Both the position numbers and the translations under genes were made by a program. A DNA stretch of 64,000 nucleotides from Bacillota bacterium. Lineage in GTDB: Bacteria; Bacillota; Clostridia; Acetivibrionales; JANLFN01. Under the pieces are notes generated by a model. It saw only the letters and a program-made list of their open reading frames with translations, searched no databases and was not told where the DNA came from. The stretch spans positions 6,101 to 70,100 of the forward strand of contig JAUZPR010000002.1 in assembly GCA_030705825.1 (NCBI GenBank). The letters run 5' to 3'. Shown piece by piece: positions 2,637 to 59,832 of this stretch. Position 1 is the first letter of the stretch; each line of letters opens with the position of its first letter.

Positions 2637-3830
2637 TTATAATGAAACATTTTCAAACAGCATGGAAATACCCTGTCCACCGCCTATACACATTGTAACA
2701 AGCCCTAATTTTGAATTTCTTCTCTGCATTTCATACATAAGCTTGACCGGAAGAATTACACCTGTTGCTCCAACAGGGTGACCAAGAGCAATGGCTCCTC
2801 CGTTTACATTAACTTTATCGGTATTCAATCCAAGATCATTAATAACTGCAACCGATTGTGAAGCAAAAGCTTCATTTAATTCTATCAGATCAATATCATT
2901 AACATTCATTTTAAGTCTTTCCATGAGTTTCCTTGTTGAAAGAGCAGGTGCAAAACCCATCAGTTCAGCTTCATTTCCTGCTACTGCAAAACCTTTTATT
3001 GACATAATAGGTTTAATTCCAAGTTCATCTGCTTTTTCCCTGGACATAACAACTACAGCCGCTGCACCGTCATTAATTCCGGAAGCATTTGCTGCTGTTA
3101 CACTGCCGCCTGCTTTGAATGCCGGTTTCATTTTGGACAATTTTTCTAATGTAAGTCCTCTGCGCGGGTGTTCATCGGTACTGAACCACTCTGTTTTACC
3201 TTTTCCGACAGGAACTTCAACCGGAACTATTTCATCCACAAATTTACCGTCATCAAGAGCTTTTACAGCCTTTTCCTGGCTCAGAAAAGCAAATTCGTCC
3301 TGTTGTTCACGTGTAACACTATATTTGTCTGCAACGTTTTCTGCAGTCATTCCATTGTGAAATGGTCCCAAAGGCCATGTGAGTATATCAATCAAACCAT
3401 CCTCAAGGTTTCCATGCCCCATTCTGTAACCGAATCTGGCTCCCTTTACGTAATATGGCAGCTGACTCATGTTTTCGGTTCCGCATGCTACAACAATATC
3501 AGCATTTTCTGTCTGTATTTTCATCACTGCATCTGCAATTGCTTCAAGACCTGAACCGCACTGTCTGTTAACCGAGTAGGCAGTAGTTTCCAATGGAAGT
3601 CCGGCTTTTAACGAGCACATTCTTCCTATAAATCCGTTTTCTGCAATTTGTCCTACATTTCCAACTATAACTTCATCAACCAGTTTACCATCAATATTTG
3701 ATCTTTTTATAGCTTCTTTTATTACTATAGCTGCAAGGTCAGTGCAGTGCACATCCTTAAGACTTCCACCAAAACCTCCTATTGCAGTTCTTGCCCCGCT
3801 TGTAATTACAATTTCCTTAAAACTGCCCAT
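2637..3830 (-). CDS. Acetyl-CoA C-acetyltransferase (thiolase II family)
   Basis: Thiolase motifs NRQCGSGLEA (active Cys), GHPVGATG and CIGGGQG. Start at MGSFKEIVI with a GGGGAGG RBS. Confidence 0.9.
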   Translation of the reverse strand: MGSFKEIVITSGARTAIGGFGGSLKDVHCTDLAAIVIKEAIKRSNIDGKLVDEVIVGNVGQIAENGFIGRMCSLKAGLPLETTAYSVNRQCGSGLEAIADAVMKIQTENADIVVACGTENMSQLPYYVKGARFGYRMGHGNLEDGLIDILTWPLGPFHNGMTAENVADKYSVTREQQDEFAFLSQEKAVKALDDGKFVDEIVPVEVPVGKGKTEWFSTDEHPRRGLTLEKLSKMKPAFKAGGSVTAANASGINDGAAAVVVMSREKADELGIKPIMSIKGFAVAGNEAELMGFAPALSTRKLMERLKMNVNDIDLIELNEAFASQSVAVINDLGLNTDKVNVNGGAIALGHPVGATGVILPVKLMYEMQRRNSKLGLVTMCIGGGQGISMLFENVSL

Positions 3831-5844: not shown

Positions 5845-7334
5845 TTATTTCCTCCCCCTTTCGGCATTGAGTAGGCAATAATGTTCTCCTTGGTAATATC
5901 TTTTCCCATTAGTGTTTTTACAATATTGCCCTCATACATGACAATTATTCTGGACAAATGCGTATGCTTGGTCAACTCAACCAGCTCTTCATCGTCACTT
6001 GAAACCATCATAACTGCTGAACCGGCATCGGCTAAATCCCTGAATATCTTATGGATGTCTCTTCTTGCCTGAACATCAATACCTTTTGTAGGGTCATCTG
6101 CAAGAAGAACCAGCGGCATAGATGAAGTCCATCTTCCGATTACAACCTTTTGCTGATTTCCTCCGCTCAAGGTTGTAATCTGCTGTCTCGTGCTTCCAAA
6201 TACAACTCCGTAATCCTTCAAAAGTTTCATTTCATTAACCCTTGTTTTTTTAAGTACAAGATTATTAACAGCTGTAAGATTTTCCGAAACAGATCTTTCA
6301 CCGAATACTCCTTCTTTTTCCCTGTCACCCGATACAAATGCCAGACCTGACTTAACGGCTTTAATTGGTGAAGTTATATGTTTCTCGGTTCCGTCTATTT
6401 CCAGCCGAATTCCTCCCTGTAAACCGAAAACAGTCTTCAGGAACTCTGATTGTCCATGGCCCTGTAAACCGGCAATACCTATTATTTCGCCTTTTTTAAC
6501 TTCGATATTGATTTTGCTGTCAAATCTAGGAAGCACCAAATCTTTTATATTCAAAATCGTCTTTGTATTTTCGTAGACAAGACTGTTATTTTCGCTTTCA
6601 AGATCTGAATCCTTTATATCTCTTCCGGTCATTAAGGATAGCAGTTCATTTTCATTCTTTTCATTTATTTTATAAGTTCCTACAATTTCTCCGTTTTTCA
6701 TAACAGTTACAGTGTCACAGATCGAATATATTTCAGACATTCTGTGTGAGATAAAGATAACAGTACAGCCCTTTGCTTTTAAAGCATGGATAATTTCTCT
6801 AACTACTTCAACATCCTCTCTGTATAAAGCAGAAGTAATTTCATCAATAATCAAAATATCCGGCTGCTGGACCAAGGCTTTTGCAAATTCCACCATATAC
6901 TGCTGATTAGGTGCAAGTTCGGAAATTTCTTTATCTAATAAATGTTCAAGCTTTAAACTCTTTAATATCTCAAAAGCTCTCTTTTTTATTTCCTTTTTAT
7001 TTACAAACAATCCTCTGGTGACAGGTAACTGGCATATACAAAGATTCTCTTCAACTGAAAGATTTGTAAAAAGCCCTAATTCCTGAGATGTTATGACTAT
7101 TCCGTGCTTCTTTGTATTTGATGGCGATTTGGTTTTTATTACTTTATCACGTATTTTTACCGCTCCGGTATCAGGACTTACTGCGCCGCCGATAATCTTT
7201 GCGATGGTACTTTTTCCTGAACCGTTGCCTCCTAGTAACGCCCTGATTTCTCCTTCCGCCACTGAAAGGCTGGCATTCTTCAAAGCAGTTATGTTCCCGA
7301 AGGTTTTTGAAATATTTTCGCAGGTTAATTTCAT
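5841..7334 (-). CDS. Sugar ABC transporter ATP-binding protein (duplicated ATPase)
   Basis: Walker A GGNGSGKST, signature LSGGNQQK, two nucleotide-binding domains as in RbsA/LsrA-type proteins. Start at MKLTCENISKTF with a GAGGGG RBS. Confidence 0.9.
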   Translation of the reverse strand: MKLTCENISKTFGNITALKNASLSVAEGEIRALLGGNGSGKSTIAKIIGGAVSPDTGAVKIRDKVIKTKSPSNTKKHGIVITSQELGLFTNLSVEENLCICQLPVTRGLFVNKKEIKKRAFEILKSLKLEHLLDKEISELAPNQQYMVEFAKALVQQPDILIIDEITSALYREDVEVVREIIHALKAKGCTVIFISHRMSEIYSICDTVTVMKNGEIVGTYKINEKNENELLSLMTGRDIKDSDLESENNSLVYENTKTILNIKDLVLPRFDSKINIEVKKGEIIGIAGLQGHGQSEFLKTVFGLQGGIRLEIDGTEKHITSPIKAVKSGLAFVSGDREKEGVFGERSVSENLTAVNNLVLKKTRVNEMKLLKDYGVVFGSTRQQITTLSGGNQQKVVIGRWTSSMPLVLLADDPTKGIDVQARRDIHKIFRDLADAGSAVMMVSSDDEELVELTKHTHLSRIIVMYEGNIVKTLMGKDITKENIIAYSMPKGGGNK

Positions 7335-22659: not shown

Positions 22660-23580
22660 TTATAAAATTCTCCTTGCTGTGGAATAATGCGTGCTGTAAT
22701 AGCCGGAAAAGCTTTCAATTACAACTCTTCCTACCGAGCTGGATGCTGCATGAATAAATTTGCCGTCTCCAATATAAATACCAACATGATCGATATAACT
22801 GTGATGACATTTAAAGAATATCAAATCTCCGGGCTTCAGTTGATCCTTGCTGACCTTCTCACCCTCAAGTGCTTGTGCTGAAGCGGTTCGGCTTAATTTA
22901 ATTCCAAAATGTGAATAAACATAACCTGAAAAACCGGAACAGTCAAAACCCTTTGGTGAGGTGCCGCCATAAACATAAGGCGAACCTACATACTTTTTAG
23001 CGTATTCTATCAAATCAGCAGCCTTTGAACCATCTGTTTTATCAGTACCCGACCCGTTGGACTCTGCTGAAGATATTACATCTGCTGCACTTCTCGAAGC
23101 ATTTGCATCCCTTAAGGAAACATAATCTGAACTTACCCAGCCTACAACACCTTCGGATGTTTTTACCTTGTACCAGCCGTCGGCTCTTGCATAGATACTG
23201 ACCGTATTACCTTTTTCCACCTTGGCTAATATGGCAGATGAAGCATCTGCACTTTGTCTGACGTTCACAACACTTCCGGTAACAGTTCCGGTGCCTATGG
23301 TTGTATCCTTAATGGAAACGTAGTCGCTGCTCACCCAACCGGTAACATTATCATAAGTGACTTTATACCAGTCTTTTGAAGTATCTTTTATTGAAACCTG
23401 ATTTCCCTGCTGAAGCTTAAGAAGAATCTTTGAAGATGTATCCGGTGTTTCACGCATATTAAGCGTATCACATGTTACCGTACCCACCTTGTTTTCATCT
23501 GCAAACGCAAATCCCGAACAGAAAACTATAATAATTAGCGTTACTGCAGACCCGATTAGAAGTTTGTAAAACCTTGACAT
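22660..23580 (-). CDS. Cell-wall hydrolase, 2x SH3 + NlpC/P60 domain
   Basis: Signal peptide, two SH3_3-like repeats (GWVSSDYVS twice), and a C-terminal NlpC/P60 domain (FDCSGF...H). ATG at 23580 follows AGGAGTG. Confidence 0.88.
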   Translation of the reverse strand: MSRFYKLLIGSAVTLIIIVFCSGFAFADENKVGTVTCDTLNMRETPDTSSKILLKLQQGNQVSIKDTSKDWYKVTYDNVTGWVSSDYVSIKDTTIGTGTVTGSVVNVRQSADASSAILAKVEKGNTVSIYARADGWYKVKTSEGVVGWVSSDYVSLRDANASRSAADVISSAESNGSGTDKTDGSKAADLIEYAKKYVGSPYVYGGTSPKGFDCSGFSGYVYSHFGIKLSRTASAQALEGEKVSKDQLKPGDLIFFKCHHSYIDHVGIYIGDGKFIHAASSSVGRVVIESFSGYYSTHYSTARRIL

Positions 23581-23597
23581 CAAATCCACTCCTATTT

Positions 23598-23713
23598 CTA
23601 GCTTCCGAAGTTAGCTGACGGGTTCGGGTAATAGGATCACCCCTACCATCCTTAAGGATGGATTAGCCCCACTATTTGGTTCCTCCGTACCTCTTTTTTC
23701 AAGAGGATTCAGC
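23598..23713 (-). promoter_or_regulatory. c-di-AMP riboswitch (ydaO/yuaA motif)
   Basis: Minus strand reads GAAUCC...ACGGAGGAACC...GGGGCUAAUCC...GGGGUGAUCC...ACCCGAACCCGUCAGCUAACUUCGGAAGC. This matches the two pseudo-symmetric ydaO halves. The motif lies upstream of a cell-wall hydrolase, which is typical. Confidence 0.85.
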
Positions 23714-23738
23714 TTAATGAAATTTTACATCCACGAAT

Positions 23739-33570: not shown

Positions 33571-33585
33571 ATTAACAATAAAATT

Positions 33586-33710
33586 CAATCTTCAGGGATG
33601 GGTGAAATTCCCTATCGGCGGTAATATGGCCTGACCATTAGCCCGCGAGCGAAAGCAGACCCGGTTTGATTCCGGGGCCGACGGTAAAGTCCGGATGAAA
33701 GAAGAAGTTC
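33586..33710 (+). promoter_or_regulatory. FMN riboswitch (RFN element)
   Basis: CAGGGATGGGTGAAATTCCCTATCGGCGGTA...AGCCCGCGAGC...CCGGTTTGATTCCGGGGCCGACGGTAAAGTCCGGATGAAAGAAGAAG matches conserved RFN blocks. Confidence 0.9.
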
Positions 33711-33808: not shown

Positions 33809-34426
33809 TTGAGAGAATTAACAGGTAACAGAATTAAAACGTCACAGATTACTAAAATTGCTATATTATCGGCTCTTGCAGGAATTATTATGTATTTTGA
33901 AACCACACTGCCTTTTATGCCACCTTTTTTAAAAATTGATCTTAGTGAAATCCCGGCACTAATAGGTTCTTTTGCTTTAGGACCTATAAGCGGAATATTT
34001 ATTGAACTTATAAAAAATCTTATTCATCTGCCTGCAACTCAAACATTTTGTGTGGGAGAATTGGCAAACTTCATAATGGGCTCGTTTTTTGTAGCAACAG
34101 CAGGATATATATATAAATACAAAAAGACCCGTTCGGGCGCAGTAATTGCTATGATTTTCGGTACTCTCTCCATGACTGTTGCGGCTTCACTTGCAAATTA
34201 TTTTTTCCTGATAGACTTTTATGCAAAGCTTTACCACATTTCCATGAAGGACCTGGTGGATATGTCCACCAAGGTAAATGGACTGGTTAAAGATCTTAAA
34301 TCCCTGATAGTATTTGCATTTATACCATTCAATATATTTAAAGGTTTGGTAGTTTCATTGATTACCGCATTGATTTATAAACATGTATCTCCTATTCTTC
34401 ACAGCAGGCATTTTTCCGGCAAGTAA
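33809..34426 (+). CDS. ribU: Riboflavin transporter, ECF S-component RibU
   Basis: Six-TM S-component-like protein directly behind the FMN riboswitch. TTG start 9 nt after AGGAGG. Confidence 0.78.
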   Translation: MRELTGNRIKTSQITKIAILSALAGIIMYFETTLPFMPPFLKIDLSEIPALIGSFALGPISGIFIELIKNLIHLPATQTFCVGELANFIMGSFFVATAGYIYKYKKTRSGAVIAMIFGTLSMTVAASLANYFFLIDFYAKLYHISMKDLVDMSTKVNGLVKDLKSLIVFAFIPFNIFKGLVVSLITALIYKHVSPILHSRHFSGK

Positions 34427-46777: not shown

Positions 46778-46805
46778 AGTTCAGGGTTCGGAGTTGGGAT
46801 TTCAG
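46778..46805 (+). repeat. Phased heptamer array (AGTTCAG GGTTCGG AGTTGGG ATTTCAG)
   Basis: Four contiguous 7-nt units read directly from the plus strand. They are partly complementary to the array at 46913-46947. Confidence 0.8.
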
Positions 46806-46912
46806 GGGAAAACCTTTATAATAATGCATTCTCATAACAAAGGACAATTGGTATAATCCAGTTTTGGTAATTACCTTTTGTCCAATATGAAGAAACTAAA
46901 TTAAGATTTAGG

Positions 46913-46947
46913 TTTAACTCCTAACTCTGAACTCTTAACTCCGAACT
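46913..46947 (-). repeat. Phased heptamer array (AGTTCGG AGTTAAG AGTTCAG AGTTAGG AGTTAAA)
   Basis: Five perfectly phased AGTTNNN units on the minus strand. They start at the base after the rpoZ stop codon (46948-46950). Confidence 0.85.
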
Positions 46948-48993: not shown

Positions 48994-49231
48994 ATATGAT
49001 TATCATCCTTATTTTTAATTATTAATTTTAGAAATATGTAAATTATATCCTTATTTCTCAATTATCACTTATGTATTATAACACAATTCATTATAAAATA
49101 AAGCCGTTTTTTTTAATTTTATATATTTTAATCGCTTTTTCTCGCTCTTACTCGTTTTTTTGAATAAATCTGATTTTTATAATTATATTTTAAAATATCC
49201 AAGTTCTTTTCCACTATTCCAGATATAAAAT

Positions 49232-49688: not shown

Positions 49689-50425
49689 TAGCCTAAATCT
49701 CCCAACTCATACATAAGAATAGATAAAACAACTATACCGGCAGTTTCTGTTCTAAGTATCCTGGGCCCAAGGGTTACCGGTATCACATTCTTATTGACTG
49801 CATCTTCTATCTCTTTATCAGAAAATCCCCCTTCAGGTCCTATAAAAAAGGAAATTTTCCTGCAGTCTGGAATCAGGCTTTTTCTTAAGGGTGTTATATT
49901 TTCTTTCTCGAACGGAATTATATTCAAATCATTTTCCTGAGCTTTCAGTAAAGCTTCTTTAAATATAACAGGTTCATCTATATGGGGTATTATTCCCCTA
50001 TTACATTGTTTGGCAGCTTCAAGTGAAATCTTCTGCCATCTTGAAACTTTCTTATCTATGTCTGGTTTATTTCCAAGCTTGACTACCGTTCTCTCGGTAA
50101 TTACCGGTACTACCCTGTTTACTCCAAGTTCAACGGACTTCTGAATTATAAAATCCATTTTGTCGGACTTTGGAAGACCCTGGAACAGGGTTATACCTAC
50201 AGGCGGCTCGGTTTGGGTTTTCCAAGACTCTATAGGGCAGAGAACTACTGAATTGGCATCGAAATATTCCAAACGTGTTCTGAAATCTTTTCCGGCGCCG
50301 TCACAGATTACCAATTCCTCACCTTTTCTAAGGCGCAGGACATTTTTTATGTGATTAAAGTCCTCACCGGTTATTATGATTTTATCAGTATATATATTTC
50401 CCGGATTTACAAAGAACCTTGGCAT
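49688..50425 (-). CDS. rsmE: 16S rRNA (uracil1498-N3)-methyltransferase
   Basis: MPRFFV N-terminus, a SPOUT C-terminus (GPEGGFS) and prmA-rsmE synteny. Confidence 0.9.
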   Translation of the reverse strand: MPRFFVNPGNIYTDKIIITGEDFNHIKNVLRLRKGEELVICDGAGKDFRTRLEYFDANSVVLCPIESWKTQTEPPVGITLFQGLPKSDKMDFIIQKSVELGVNRVVPVITERTVVKLGNKPDIDKKVSRWQKISLEAAKQCNRGIIPHIDEPVIFKEALLKAQENDLNIIPFEKENITPLRKSLIPDCRKISFFIGPEGGFSDKEIEDAVNKNVIPVTLGPRILRTETAGIVVLSILMYELGDLG

Positions 50426-51351
50426 CTAAATACAATCGCCACCCATTCTCCCATTTCTAGTATTTCCTCGCACTTGAACCCAAGGCTTTGATATTTATCC
50501 AGAACCTCCTGCTTACGTTCTTTGATTATGCCGGAGGTTAAGAATAAACCGTCGGTTTTCAGAAGATTTTTTACCTTTTTGGATATAGTTATTATAACAT
50601 CGGCTATTATATTTGCAACGATTACGTCGGCATTTCCACTTTTCACATCGTCAAGCACACCTGTAAAAGCCTCGATTTTACCACCAGTACCATTAAGTAT
50701 GCTGTTTTCTTTTGTAATTCTTACCGCAACCTCGTCTATATCGAAAGCCAATACATGTTCGGCTCCCAGCTTGATTGCGGCTATGGAAAGTATCCCTGTC
50801 CCGCAGCCTGCATCAATAACTTTCGAACCCCTTTTAAGGTATTTTTCGAGAAGCTGAATGCATAGTCTTGTAGTTTCATGAGTACCAGTTCCAAAAGCCA
50901 TACCGGGATTGATTTCTAAAATTATTTCATTGTCTTTGGCTGAATATTCTTCCCATGAAGGCTTAATAACAACCCTGTCGGTTATATGAACAGGTTTATA
51001 GTATTTTTTCCAGTTATTAGCCCAGTCTTCCTCGTCTACCTGTTCGGCCAAAACCTTTAGGTTTCCGGTATCCAGGTACCTGGATATGACTGATGCCTTT
51101 TCATTAACTAAAGACAATAACTCCCGCGAATTTTCTATTTCTGAAAAATACGCCTTTATAACAACATCATTGCCTAGCGAATTCATAAAATTCTCATCGG
51201 CATAATCAAGTGAATTGGGCTTTGATATCTCTTTGCGTATATCATCGGGGTCTTCAATAGCAACTCCGTTTGCACCTATGGACATAAGCATGTCCGAAAT
51301 AGCATCGCTTGCTTCACCGGTAGTAATAACCTTAATTTCAGTCCACTTCAT
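50407..51351 (-). CDS. prmA: Ribosomal protein L11 methyltransferase
   Basis: MKWTEIKV start, SAM motif DAGCGTGILS. ATG at 51351 follows AAGGGGTG. Confidence 0.92.
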   Translation of the reverse strand: MKWTEIKVITTGEASDAISDMLMSIGANGVAIEDPDDIRKEISKPNSLDYADENFMNSLGNDVVIKAYFSEIENSRELLSLVNEKASVISRYLDTGNLKVLAEQVDEEDWANNWKKYYKPVHITDRVVIKPSWEEYSAKDNEIILEINPGMAFGTGTHETTRLCIQLLEKYLKRGSKVIDAGCGTGILSIAAIKLGAEHVLAFDIDEVAVRITKENSILNGTGGKIEAFTGVLDDVKSGNADVIVANIIADVIITISKKVKNLLKTDGLFLTSGIIKERKQEVLDKYQSLGFKCEEILEMGEWVAIVFRCQGSL

Positions 51352-51373
51352 GATCCTAAGCACCCCTTTTTAT

Positions 51374-51408
51374 AGTGTACAGTTGACAATGGACAGTTGA
51401 CAGTTAAA
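51374..51408 (+). repeat. Phased heptamer array (AGTGTAC AGTTGAC AATGGAC AGTTGAC AGTTAAA)
   Basis: Five contiguous 7-nt units on the plus strand next to the prmA RBS. It is an inverted partner of 51456-51510. Confidence 0.85.
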
Positions 51409-51455
51409 ATAAATATTTTCAAAATATAATTTAATATTTTAAAAAGAGCAACTTA

Positions 51456-51510
51456 AAAAACTGTACATTGTACACTGTAAACTGTACACTCCACTTGTAC
51501 ACTGTACACT
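51456..51510 (-). repeat. Phased heptamer array (AGTGTAC AGTGTAC AAGTGG AGTGTAC AGTTTAC AGTGTAC AATGTAC AGTTTTT)
   Basis: Eight units on the minus strand (one is 6 nt). The array starts 3 nt after the dnaJ stop codon (51514-51516). Confidence 0.85.
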
Positions 51511-51513
51511 TAT

Positions 51514-52665
51514 TTACATTCCCAGTGCATCTTTCATCTTTTCAAAAAAGCTTTTTCGCTGTTCGTACTTGTCATCACCAATTAAATCGGCAAATTCACG
51601 CAGGATGTTTTTTTGTTTTTCATTAAGCTTCTTAGGTACTTCAACATTAACCCTGATGTATTCGTCTCCACGGCCGCTGCCCCTTATAAAAGGAATTCCC
51701 TTCCCTTTCAGTCTGAATACCGATCCTGTTTGAGTGCCTTCCGGTACGGTATATTTTACCCTTCCGTCCAGAGTTGGAACTTCTATTTCAGCACCAAGGG
51801 CTGCTTGAACAAAGGTAATTGGCATTTCACATACTACATCATTGCCCTGACGCTGGAAGAGAGCATGTGGCTTGACCCTTACCGATATATACAGGTCACC
51901 CGCAGGGCCACCCTTCAATCCTGGTTCTCCTTCACCGCGAAGGGAGATTGTTTGCCCGTCATCTATTCCGGCAGGTATATTGACCTTTATTTTTACACTC
52001 TTTCTAACCCTGCCTTTGCCGCCGCAGGTAGCGCAGGGATCGCTTATAACTTTACCCTCTCCTCTGCAGACATCACACGTTTTAACATTTACAAACTGCC
52101 CGAAAGGTGTGCTTTGTTTTACCTGAACCTGCCCGGTTCCATTACAGTGCCTGCATACCGTAGGTTCAGTACCATTCTTTGACCCCGAACCTTTGCAGGT
52201 CGGACAATTTTCCAATCTGCTTATATTGATGTCTCTTTGTATTCCAAAAGCGGCTTCATCAAAAGCTATCTCAACTGCATATTTTAAATCGGCGCCTTTT
52301 TGAGGACCTCGTTTATTTTTTGACGATCGTCCAAATCCTGTTCCTCCGAAGAAAGACTCGAAAATATCACCGATACCGCCAAAGTCAAATCCTTCGAAAC
52401 CGCCGCCAAATCCGCCTCCGCCGAAACCACTGTTTGGGTCTGTTCCGGCATGCCCGAATTGGTCATATCTTGATTTCTTCTGAGGATCGCTGAGTATCTC
52501 ATATGCTTCGTTTATTTCTTTAAACTTAGCTTCCGCAGACTTATCTCCGGGATTGACATCAGGGTGATATTGTTTAGCCAGTTTTCTATATGCTTTTTTT
52601 ATATCTGTATCTGTTGCATTTCTATCAATACCTAAAACCTCATAATAATCTCTCTTATCCGCCAC
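51514..52665 (-). CDS. dnaJ: Molecular chaperone DnaJ
   Basis: J-domain (YHPD), G/F region and four CxxCxGxG zinc motifs. Confidence 0.97.
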
Positions 52666-52898
52666 TGTATCAACCTCATTTCTAAAAAGATGAAGAAATC
52701 ATTGATTTCCGGGTCTGGTGATTAATGCATATGAATTTCTCTCATCTTAAAGCTTAAAAGCAATTCTATTAATATAACCGTAATTTAACATATGAAATGT
52801 ATATTAAAAGTTATACACTAAATAAATCTATAATAGTCAAAGCCATACCCGGCTTTGACTATCATACGATAAATACTTTTATTGTTCAACCCTTTTTT

Positions 52899-57959: not shown

Positions 57960-57973
57960 AATTGACAATTGAA
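57960..57973 (+). repeat. Short heptamer array (AATTGAC AATTGAA)
   Basis: Two units next to the hemW RBS. TTGACAATTGA (57962-57972) is perfectly complementary to TCAATTGTCAA (57998-58008). Confidence 0.7.
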
Positions 57974-57982
57974 TCTTGTCCT

Positions 57983-58017
57983 TTTAACTGTCCTATGTCA
58001 ATTGTCAACTTTCAACT
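57983..58017 (-). repeat. Phased heptamer array (AGTTGAA AGTTGAC AATTGAC ATAGGAC AGTTAAA)
   Basis: Five contiguous units on the minus strand, starting 3 nt after the lepA stop codon (58021-58023). Very similar to the plus-strand array at 51374-51408. Confidence 0.85.
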
Positions 58018-58020
58018 GAT

Positions 58021-59832
58021 TTAACTGTCCAGCTTCAATACGCTCATAAATGCTTCCTGCGGGACCTCTACACTTCCAACCTGACGCATACGCTTCTTTC
58101 CTTCCTTCTGCTTTTCAAGAAGCTTCTTTTTACGTGTGATATCACCGCCGTAACACTTTGCCAACACGTCTTTTCTATAAGCCTTTACAGTTTCACGGGC
58201 TATTATTTTTCCCCCTATGATAGCCTGAATGGGTATTTCAAACTGCTGCCTCGGTATGGAATCCTTAAGCTTTTCCGCAATTCTTCTTCCGCGGCTGTAT
58301 GCCTTTTCCTTATGAACTATGAAGGAAAGCGCATCCACAATCTCTGTATTCAGAAAAATGTCCAGCTTGACCAGGTCGGATTCCTTATATCCCATTAATT
58401 CATAATCCAGAGAGGCATATCCCTTTGTCCTGGATTTTAAAGTATCAAAGAAATCATATATTATCTCATTAAGAGGAATTTCATAGGTCAACATAACTCT
58501 TTCTTCGTCTATATAGGACATATCCTTGTATGTTCCGCGTCTCTCCTGTGAAAGGTCCATTATATTTCCTACAAATTCAGAAGGAGTCATTATTGTTGCT
58601 TTAACAATGGGTTCTTCCATTTTTTCAATTTCAGTCGGCGGAGGGAAATTTGTCGGGTTGTCAATTAAAGAAACTTCTCCGTTTGTCTTTGTTACTCTGT
58701 ATATAACGCTTGGAGCTGTAGTTACCAAATCCAGATTATATTCCCTCTCTAGCCTTTCTTGAATTATATCCATATGAAGAAGACCCAAAAAACCGCATCT
58801 GAAACCAAAACCCAGAGCTACCGAAGATTCGGGTTCAAACATTAGTGAAGCATCGTTTAACTGCAGTTTTTCAAGTGCATCCCGCAAATCACCGTATTTA
58901 GCACCATCTGCAGGATATATTCCGCAAAAGACCATGGAGGTAACCTTTTTATAACCAGGCAGCGGATCCTTAGCCGGATAATCCGCAAGAGTTACAGTAT
59001 CTCCAACTCTTGTATCCCCTACATTTTTAATACTGGCAGCAATATAACCTACTTCTCCGGATAAAAGCTTTCCTGTAGGAATAAATCCGCCAGGCTTAAA
59101 GTAGCCGGCTTCGGTAACAAGAAACTCTTTACCGGTATTCATCATCCTTATGGTATCCCCAACAGCCACCTTGCCTTCCTTGACTCTTACATGAACAATA
59201 ACTCCTTTATAGCTGTCATAATAGGAGTCAAAAATCAGTGCTTTAAGAGGCAGGTTCTCATCACCTGCTGGTGGCGGTATGAAATCAACTATCTTTTCAA
59301 GCACTTCTTCTATATTTATACCGTTTTTGGCAGAAATCAAAGGTGCATTACTTGCTTCAAGCCCGATTACATCTTCTATTTCTTTTTTTACATGTTCAGG
59401 CTGTGCACTTGGCAGATCAATCTTGTTGATAACCGGAAGTATTTCAAGATCATGTTCCAGGGCAAGATATACGTTTGCAAGGGTTTGGGCTTCTATACCC
59501 TGTGCTGCATCAACTACCAGTATTGCACCTTCACAGGCAGCCAGACTTCTGGAGACTTCATAATTGAAATCCACATGACCTGGAGTATCAATAATATTGT
59601 ATATATATTCCTGTCCATCCGATGCCTTGTAAACCATCCTTACAGATTGGGCTTTTATAGTAATTCCCCGTTCGCGCTCAATATCCATATTATCCAGGAC
59701 CTGTTCCTGCATCTCCCTTTCGGTAAGAACACCCGTCTTCTCAATCAGCCTGTCAGCCAGAGTAGACTTTCCATGATCTATATGTGCAATTATACAGAAA
59801 TTTCTGATATACTTTTGCCTTTCATCAGACAT
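58021..59832 (-). CDS. lepA: Elongation factor 4 (LepA)
   Basis: [21 protein letters not shown]1 motif and the LepA-specific C-terminus. ATG at 59832 is 7 nt after GGAGGA. Confidence 0.97.

Follow-up and report, generated by a model that had tools for sequence, protein, structure and literature searches.

The spacer between dnaJ and prmA in a 64-kb stretch of a Clostridia-type Bacillota metagenome-assembled genome (MAG) carries two facing arrays of phased heptamers. These arrays are probably slippage-prone intergenic repeats akin to the short tandemly repeated repetitive (STRR) sequences of cyanobacteria, and the long duplex that their RNA is predicted to form would then arise incidentally, without having been selected as an RNA device. 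Hereafter, "the window" refers to the whole 64-kb stretch, and coordinates given without another label are its positions. The arrays belong to a wide family of modules that are polar with respect to gene boundaries. In near-identical strains of a relative, the orthologous dnaJ-prmA spacer is hypervariable, and the facing arms bear no signature of selection on their pairing.

According to the model proposed here, the spacer would hold three copies of one module, two in tandem after the dnaJ stop codon and one inverted against the prmA ribosome-binding site, a module being about four phased A[GA]TKNAC heptamers closed by AGTTAAA. The modules would be maintained at the level of DNA, their unit number shifting by slippage, and whole modules would be duplicated, lost or copied between spacers via recombination. 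They would survive only where they are harmless, which would account for their dense placement between the stop codon of one gene and the ribosome-binding site of the following one. Two opposed modules would automatically be about 75-80% complementary because their units share the skeleton A-R-T-x-x-A-C. We infer that slippage and recombination are the mechanism and that the arrays have no dedicated function, apart from a terminator or attenuator, made of a hairpin and a U-tract, that the dnaJ-side array would provide at the end of the hrcA-dnaJ operon as a local side effect.

Phased Heptamers in the dnaJ-prmA Spacer

Both genes lie on the minus strand (dnaJ, 51514-52665; prmA, 50407-51351). 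Three nucleotides (ATA) past the TAA stop codon of dnaJ (51516-51514), eight units follow one another on the minus strand at 51510-51456: AGTGTAC AGTGTAC AAGTGG AGTGTAC AGTTTAC AGTGTAC AATGTAC AGTTTTT. This is the sequence given in a preliminary description of this DNA. The first three units make up a truncated module (51491-51510) and the other five a full one (51456-51490, the 5' arm), both in the sense orientation, and a T6 tract (U6 in the RNA; 51455-51460, minus strand) lies directly 3' of this array, which folds on itself as discussed below. An AT-rich core of 47 nt (51409-51455) separates the full module from its counterpart on the plus strand, antisense to the genes, which reads AGTGTAC AGTTGAC AATGGAC AGTTGAC AGTTAAA (51374-51408, the 3' arm). 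The AGT end of the latter adjoins the ribosome-binding site of prmA: the module ends 7 nt from the Shine-Dalgarno sequence GGGGTG (51366-51361), which together with the ATG start codon (51351-51349) spans 51349-51366 on the minus strand. The five opposite-strand units and the AT-rich core had likewise been correctly described, and the complementarity of the arms, put at about 25/32 by hand, came to 26/32 (81%) in an inverted-repeat search, which delimited 32-nt arms at 51374-51405 and 51459-51490.

Both arrays are detected by Tandem Repeats Finder (TRF), as ACTGTAC x7.4 and ACAGTTG x3.9. Over the 64 kb, self-similarity at a lag of 7 nt produced 30 high-scoring 21-nt segments, as against none at lags 4, 5, 8, 9, 11 and 12, two at lag 6, and 16 at lag 10 that all stem from one unrelated site. 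The pattern ARTN4 x4 has six matches in the window where 0.73 are expected, and ARTKNACARTKNAC, with at most one mismatch, has 15 where 5.9 are expected; neither count was reached in any of 100 shuffles. Arrays of such heptamers were found in three spacers, dnaJ-prmA, rpoZ-coaBC and lepA-hemN, and in no other spacer and no coding sequence of the window. Rfam gave no match at the arrays, either at the gathering threshold or at E values up to 5 (46.6-58.2 kb), and none on related loci.

Some known elements were considered and rejected. The units are not backup stop codons, as AGTGTAC is free of stop codons and the reading frame of dnaJ meets its next one 24 codons further on. An integron attC site was dismissed by eye on the wrong order of its GTT-type and AAC-type ends. 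CtsR and Spo0A boxes, also judged by eye, differ in spacing and consensus, and the family described below reaches well past the Firmicutes.

A Widespread Family of Polar Modules

A metagenome scan with the pattern ACARTKNACARTKNACAGTTAAA, which consists of two units plus AGTTAAA, matched at least 120 metagenome stretches, and five viral contigs were matched as well. Among the three roles suggested in the preliminary description, that of a species-specific family resembling repetitive extragenic palindromes (REPs) came nearest, inasmuch as the arrays do form a repeat family; with such a distribution, it is not a species-specific one. The statistics that follow concern the listed matches, from which 123 non-redundant arrays were drawn (metagenome and viral contigs). 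The modules have flanks of differing composition, from AT-rich through to GC-rich. On these contigs, TRF assigned a period of 7 to 218 arrays and each other period to at most 20, and the units are nearly all A[GA]TT[GTAC]AC. Variation is limited to unit positions 2, 4 and 5, the conserved core being the junction pentamer ACAGT.

The module has a characteristic length of about 35 nt and is polar, with four units followed by a terminal AGTTAAA. Five-unit arrays are the most numerous (60 of the 123), next to 13 with three units, 32 with four, 10 with six and eight with seven or more. Among all periods, only period 7 shows a TRF copy-number mode of 4.5-5. Five units are also the size of every full module in the window and of most in its relative L081. 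AGTTA-type closing units are likewise present in inverted partners, for which there was no selection by the search pattern; such partners accompany 26 of the 123 arrays, and the loci of the window are likewise paired.

Modules are placed with respect to genes by their AGT end. In spacers between co-directional genes, this end lies a median of 5 nt from the stop codon, versus 84 nt to the next start, and the stop-side gap is the smaller one in 22 of 24 cases (p = 3.6e-5; Kolmogorov-Smirnov p = 1.7e-8). Where the neighbor is on the other strand, the array stops 0-25 nt before the ribosome-binding site of that neighbor. About ten modules overlap a stop codon or provide it. Orientation relative to transcription is only weakly biased, with 24 modules in sense and 15 in antisense. 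Besides these matches, several Clostridia MAGs among the loci collected through DnaJ have inverted pairs of heptamer arrays built from other and quite different units (e.g., AATTACG, AGTTAGG and GTCCGAT).

Modules were also encountered in association with rRNA intervening sequences and in larger repeats. In L128 (1558-1580), a 23S rRNA gene contains a five-unit module, within an apparent intervening-sequence stem-loop; the intervening sequence of Coxiella is reported to have GACAGAT heptamers at its RNase III site (PMC4990558). In L184 (1-3246), two genes for 23S rRNA intervening-sequence proteins (PF05635) are each bracketed by several heptamer arrays with the units TAACGTT, CTTTAAC, AATAGAT and AGTTGAC, an arrangement that may link this protein family to heptamer repeats. 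A dispersed repeat of about 190 nt combines five-unit heptamer arms with a conserved 78-nt core and a small flanking hairpin (alignment A1); its copies lie at L126 8950-9170, L161 4520-4730, L165 11110-11289 and L183 1-215 and 6540-6760, with a further one in L127.

Variation in Unit Number among Relatives

The nearest relative with good sampling, L081 (70% PrmA identity), carries arrays of the window's unit type in exactly the same three spacers, those in dnaJ-prmA and lepA-hemN being in sense only and devoid of an inverted arm. No heptamer arrays lie between dnaJ and prmA in L001-L003, the nearest by DnaJ, or in L209-L211 (64-67% PrmA identity). One of these array-free relatives has a dnaJ-prmA spacer of just 17 nt, a mini-array of three units is present in the 42-nt spacer of a 74% relative, and spacer lengths of 140-376 nt are found among relatives. 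In the comparison recommended earlier for deciding whether the arrays are conserved or mobile, the three spacers are thus shared with L081, and the dnaJ-prmA spacers of L001-L003 and L209-L211 lack arrays.

Variation at the strain level was assessed with L212-L218, seven near-identical relatives of L081, the window's own species being represented by a single genome. These seven differ by 8-32 substitutions per 7,945 nt (0.1-0.4%) and show no indels downstream of prmA. Their dnaJ-prmA spacers (at about 6620-7000 in each) measure 191, 302, 303, 317, 330, 352 and 376 nt, and an AATTGAG array therein has 0, 5, 5, 7, 9, 10 and 12 units. Whole modules are present in some strains and missing in others; all are in sense and in tandem, each closing with A[GA]TTAA[AG]. 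Likewise, L163 and L188 have six and two units, respectively, between identical flanks. The length changes in the dnaJ-prmA spacers would be of the variable-number tandem repeat (VNTR) type, generated by slippage and unequal recombination.

Copies of the same module at different places are seen in L081. A 61-nt composite of two modules occurs at positions 3484 and 13959, 10 kb apart, with the first 33 nt, an irregular 8-nt unit among them, identical, and a 45-nt module is present in four clear copies with 76-87% identity to the reference. Whole modules therefore appear to be copied between spacers.

Folding of the Spacer RNA

The preliminary description foresaw a long imperfect duplex across the whole spacer. 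Such a fold is indeed predicted (-43 kcal/mol, z = -3.0), without a selection signature on its pairing. It could correspond to a functional intercistronic element, namely an imperfect stem of about 30 bp acting as an RNase III substrate or message stabilizer. Besides the fold itself, the long-range stem becomes the minimum-free-energy structure, albeit only when the transcript has reached a length of at least 140 nt (prefix folding). The STRR hairpins between co-transcribed genes have been discussed as elements of stability or coupling (PMC2670836), and the rRNA module of L128 and the Coxiella heptamers are further parallels. We nonetheless regard a functional duplex as improbable. The antisense strand folds with an equivalent z-score (-33.6 kcal/mol, z = -3.2), the longest unbroken helix is 11 bp within an interrupted stem, and the local hairpin followed by U6, described below, would form earlier. 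Any two opposed modules are about 75% complementary because their units share five of seven positions, and the window arms, 75% alike over 35 nt, sit at the between-locus background of the family (mean 0.75). At 20 loci, the mismatches between arms comprise 54 of transversion type, 19 of A-C type and 10 of G-U type. A selected sense-strand helix should give an excess of G-U, and the pattern is the opposite, which leaves no signature of selection. No compensatory change or covariation between arms was seen in these mismatches or in the comparison of arm identities. Finally, the orthologous spacer of L081 lacks the inverted arm, as do those of the strains, where it is hypervariable in length, and it is unstructured (z = -0.3); sense-only spacers are unstructured (z = -0.3 and -0.5), AGTTGAC-type modules having no self-complementarity. 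With window arms at background, no G-U bias and an unstructured ortholog, the duplex is therefore probably a by-product of facing modules, and none of the tests made here supports the earlier proposal of a double-stranded RNA element of the RNase III substrate type.

The dnaJ-side array has a fold of its own. Through the TGTACA palindromes of its AGTGTAC units, it is predicted to form a 17-bp interrupted hairpin (-15 kcal/mol; 47 nt, 51508-51462). Since this array closes with AGTTTTT instead of AGTTAAA, its final unit being altered to AGTTTTTT, G+UUUUUU comes immediately after the hairpin. A 65-nt fold including the hairpin reaches -19 kcal/mol (z = -3.2; none of 200 shuffles folds as well), and prefix folding indicates that the hairpin is already formed when the U-tract is made. 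A stable predicted hairpin and a U-tract located 8 nt past a stop codon constitute the layout of an intrinsic terminator, so that the previous verdict, "not a simple terminator hairpin," needs qualifying. It is possible, and tentatively suggested by these models, that the array is an intrinsic terminator or attenuator ending the hrcA-grpE-dnaK-dnaJ transcript, with prmA expressed either by transcription past the terminator or from a weak core promoter. The core contains a weak promoter-like pair, TTGCTC-17-TATATT (8/12), read by eye and under the scanner's threshold. An A-rich stretch precedes the hairpin, which exceeds in predicted stability the terminator of canonical appearance that follows the response-regulator gene (-10.4) and stands where hairpins of the terminator type occur in comparable spacers of relatives (after rpoZ in L210 and L211). 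On the other side, a simple terminator scan missed it because the stem is AU-rich and interrupted, and the arrays of L081 and of the strains are followed by A-runs, not U-runs. Since it is not conserved in L081, the feature is treated as a locus-specific side effect. Termination is compatible with an origin from repeat modules, as it concerns a local effect only, and as a side effect of the dnaJ-side array it is plausible, judging from the predicted folds.

Alternative Explanations

Several observations weigh against slippage-prone repeats as a complete account. Pure slippage leaves unexplained why the unit count peaks sharply at five, why the closing unit A[GA]TTAA[AG] is conserved and why variation is limited to the same three unit positions across very different genomes, all of which point to recognition by some protein, and strict polarity toward gene boundaries has no mechanism under slippage alone. 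In L212-L218, the lepA-hemN and rpoZ-coaBC arrays are essentially invariant, except for a 1-nt deletion in the lepA-hemN array of one strain. The convergent architecture at rpoZ-coaBC is constant across all seven, and arrays are retained in three shared spacers at 70% protein identity; some arrays are possibly stable and constrained. Moreover, two arms of one locus resemble each other slightly more than arms that belong to separate loci do (0.81 vs. 0.75, permutation p < 2e-4, in a family sample that holds copies of one dispersed repeat).

A protein could be the missing reader: a DNA- or RNA-binding factor would recognize ACAGT every 7 nt, about five times, and the array would be a boundary, operator or translation-control site. 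For the omega repressor of pSM19035, the binding sites are contiguous 7-bp heptads arranged as direct and inverted repeats, and HutP binds NAG-N4 repeats. Binding of heptamers by CspB has also been described (PMC4679880). The discrete five-unit size, the polar orientation relative to genes and the conservation of five contiguous positions (AC-ART) next to two variable ones in very different genomes are in keeping with such a protein, and the weak strand bias favors a reader of duplex DNA over one of RNA. Discrete size, conserved pentamer and polarity argue that the units are read by something. It could be a boundary or nucleoid factor, or else a transposase-like enzyme making the units, e.g., through target duplications of 7 bp produced by stuttering. 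We nevertheless rate protein binding at the arrays as rather unlikely. The window-wide Pfam scan provided no candidate (no ribbon-helix-helix [RHH] protein, HutP or cold-shock protein, and no transposase), and no gene family recurs beside the arrays among 831 open reading frames (ORFs) on array contigs, where the largest clusters are histidine kinases and ATP-binding cassette (ABC) ATPases and PF05635 forms a small one. Near-identical strains range from 0 to 12 units with no visible constraint, and other Clostridia use quite different units. Equally doubtful at present is the broader idea that a five-heptad polar module, (ACART-NN)x4 + AGTTAA, is read on duplex DNA by a protein and marks gene boundaries in many phyla, in which case the arrays would not be free-running microsatellites. 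If true, this idea would account for the predominance of period 7 among intergenic tandem repeats in prokaryotes.

Mobility is an alternative source of dispersed modules, an arm-core-arm unit or a single module being moved in trans by a dedicated transposase in the manner of miniature inverted-repeat transposable elements (MITEs) or of REPINs, the REP doublets that form hairpins. The nearly identical composites at separate loci of L081 and the ~190-nt dispersed repeat with its conserved core speak for it, as do the 9-nt perfect terminal inverted repeat AGTGTACAG...CTGTACACT of the dnaJ-prmA spacer, flanked by ATA on both sides, and the modules that provide stop codons or occur in a 23S rRNA intervening sequence, beside tRNA genes and in phage contigs. 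However, the cores of the three window spacers are unlike each other, no convincing target-site duplication was found (none at all at rpoZ-coaBC), and the most conserved unit is at the inner end of the module instead of its tip. The module is a direct-repeat array, unlike the palindromic REP, and there is neither a REP-associated tyrosine transposase (RAYT) nor another transposase in the window or recurrently near the arrays (831 ORFs). Strain differences resemble unequal recombination among units, and transposition thus appears unlikely as the origin of the arrays. Least probable is a promoter array, with repeated TTGACA -35 boxes in AGTTGAC units driving transcription into the spacer. The best promoter-like match in an 11-kb scan is module-made, TTGACA(51383)-16-TAAAAT(51410) on the plus strand (11/12), but it is antisense and directed into the 3' end of dnaJ, and the AGTGTAC units of the dnaJ side lack TTGACA. 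The remark that the unit contains this hexamer holds for the sequence and not as a family trait, given that a -10-like hexamer at 16-18 nt is present in only 11 of 121 listed modules, no more than at non-functional spacings.

The Sister Arrays and Their Surroundings

The genes flanking the arrays are all on the minus strand: lepA, hemN, hrcA, grpE, dnaK, dnaJ, prmA, rsmE, a response-regulator gene, yicC, remA, gmk, rpoZ and coaBC. PrmA of the window, read from its ATG start, is 100% identical to MDP4091864.1 from a "Bacillota bacterium" MAG, and in a species-level genome set the nearest DnaJ is that of Pseudobacteroides cellulosolvens (74%).

Directly after the rpoZ stop codon begins the five-unit module AGTTCGG AGTTAAG AGTTCAG AGTTAGG AGTTAAA (46913-46947, minus strand). 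Its three-unit inverted partner AGTTCAG GGTTCGG AGTTGGG (46778-46798, plus strand), which reads CCCAACT CCGAACC CTGAACT facing the five-unit module, adjoins a T6 run (46776-46771) and the coaBC ribosome-binding site, so that this 3' arm is followed by U6 in the RNA. The lepA-hemN spacer has the five-unit module AGTTGAA AGTTGAC AATTGAC ATAGGAC AGTTAAA (57983-58017, minus strand), beginning 3 nt past the lepA stop codon, and the 12-nt inverted partner AATTGACAATTG (57960-57971, plus strand) just upstream of the hemN ribosome-binding site. The same unit and architecture had been said to recur at 46.8-46.9 and 58.0 kb; the unit type does so at 58.0 kb, whereas at 46.8-46.9 kb the architecture recurs with different units.

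Long stems are found in the rpoZ-coaBC spacers of five relatives out of five, with clearly negative z-scores in four. Two of these five have canonical terminators downstream of rpoZ, one of them built from hexamer arrays. In L211 (14050-14120, after rpoZ), a 27-bp perfect terminator hairpin made of hexamer arrays (GGTTAA and its complement) precedes a 14-nt tandem repeat. The core of the window's rpoZ-coaBC spacer has a hairpin, ATTGGACAA...AATTGTCC (46842-46886, minus strand), which is kept in L081 and L212-L218 while the flanking arrays change and may be a leader or attenuator for coaBC. At the other locus, the lepA stop codon is inside GGACAGTTAAA, a module's closing sequence (58021-58031, minus strand), and the last codons of lepA may be derived from a module.

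Other elements were noticed in the window. A hairpin of -25 kcal/mol in the dnaK-dnaJ spacer (52829-52866, minus strand), kept in L081, L209 and L211, is probably an internal attenuator of the operon. Upstream of yicC, the period-10 repeat TTTTACTCGC x3.4 (49126-49159) is GAGTAAA-rich on the gene strand, and similar stretches lie in the equivalent spacer of L081, L209, L210 and L211. A flavin mononucleotide (FMN) riboswitch (33584-33710, plus strand) lies 5' of a gene for the S component of an energy-coupling factor (ECF) transporter (33809-34426), and a cyclic di-AMP (c-di-AMP) riboswitch (23585-23724, minus strand) 5' of a gene for an NlpC/P60 SH3 cell-wall hydrolase (22660-23589).

Relation to Known Systems

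In a survey of 7,006 prokaryotic genomes, heptamers are reported to be the most frequent kind of intergenic tandem repeat, and "no clear clue" to what they do emerged (10.1101/309039). The arrays described here add a Clostridia-type example of this commonest class, inside the conserved dnaK heat-shock neighborhood. They also offer testable regularities: a five-unit modal length, a conserved closing unit, an AGT end facing the nearest gene, copying of modules and length polymorphism between strains. Heptamer spacers are usable as strain markers of the VNTR type, the dnaJ-prmA spacer of L212-L218 being a natural one. They also mislead predictors of RNA structure and promoters, as a pair of opposed modules can be taken for a conserved duplex and AGTTGAC for a -35 box.

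Several established systems resemble the arrays in part. REPs, bacterial interspersed mosaic elements (BIMEs) and REPINs are, like the modules, short (~35 nt) extragenic repeats at gene ends or in operons whose inverted doublets form hairpins, and REP singlets occur too (PMC3116915). However, a REP is an imperfect palindrome and a module an array of direct repeats, no RAYT accompanies the arrays (window; 831 ORFs), and their arms show no compensatory signature at the 20 loci compared. For MITEs the picture is mixed: the dnaJ-prmA spacer has terminal inverted repeats (81% over 32 nt) with ATA at both flanks, nothing comparable is seen at rpoZ-coaBC, and the cores differ within the window, a family with a common core occurring elsewhere (alignment A1). 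The omega arrays of pSM19035 are also unspaced 7-bp units in direct and inverted orientation in Firmicutes. They have the heptad consensus WATCACW, are set at plasmid promoters and are bound by an RHH protein, whereas the units here are ARTKNAC and the window has no RHH gene. With intrinsic terminators, the dnaJ-side array has in common a predicted hairpin and U6 just past a stop codon, but its stem is long, AU-rich, interrupted, built from tandem repeats and not kept in relatives. Long-range pairing around a segment of a polycistronic transcript is known from RNase III stems of rRNA operons, 23S intervening sequences and the early mRNA of phage T7. The window arms differ from these by many mismatches and a longest helix of 11 bp, by the absence of covariation and by the missing arm in the L081 ortholog.

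The closest likeness is with STRR sequences and the intergenic heptamer class at large. STRR sequences were originally defined in heterocystous cyanobacteria, with the units CCCCAGT, TTGGTCA or CAACAGT. In filamentous cyanobacteria, STRR sequences of 7 bp can form hairpins between co-transcribed genes such as hupS and hupL, their function being unknown (PMC2670836). In Beggiatoaceae, cyanobacteria and Bacteroidetes, TAACTGA repeats immediately precede start codons (PMC4679880); the reverse complement, TCAGTTA, is AGTTATC in module phase and has its AGTT start in common with the units of the window. G-rich heptamers such as GGGAATC in Xanthomonas and GGGGAYT in Nostoc include some inverted pairs (PMC4692102). 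Shared with this class are head-to-tail 7-nt units, an intergenic location at many dispersed loci, often beside start or stop codons, inverted sets able to form hairpins and a unit number that differs between strains. Here, at least three head-to-tail 7-nt copies occur in intergenic positions at several loci, and unit number varies between strains of the L081 relatives. Because the arrays come from a Clostridia-type Bacillota MAG, outside the cyanobacteria and proteobacteria, and have A[GA]TKNAC units, they are assigned to the wider heptamer class and not to STRR in the strict sense. As far as the literature read here extends, the five-unit polar module closed by AGTTAAA, the rule that its AGT end faces the gene boundary and the strain-level hypervariability at this operon go beyond what has been reported for heptamers. 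The arrays are a new instance of an established but functionally unexplained class of repeats.

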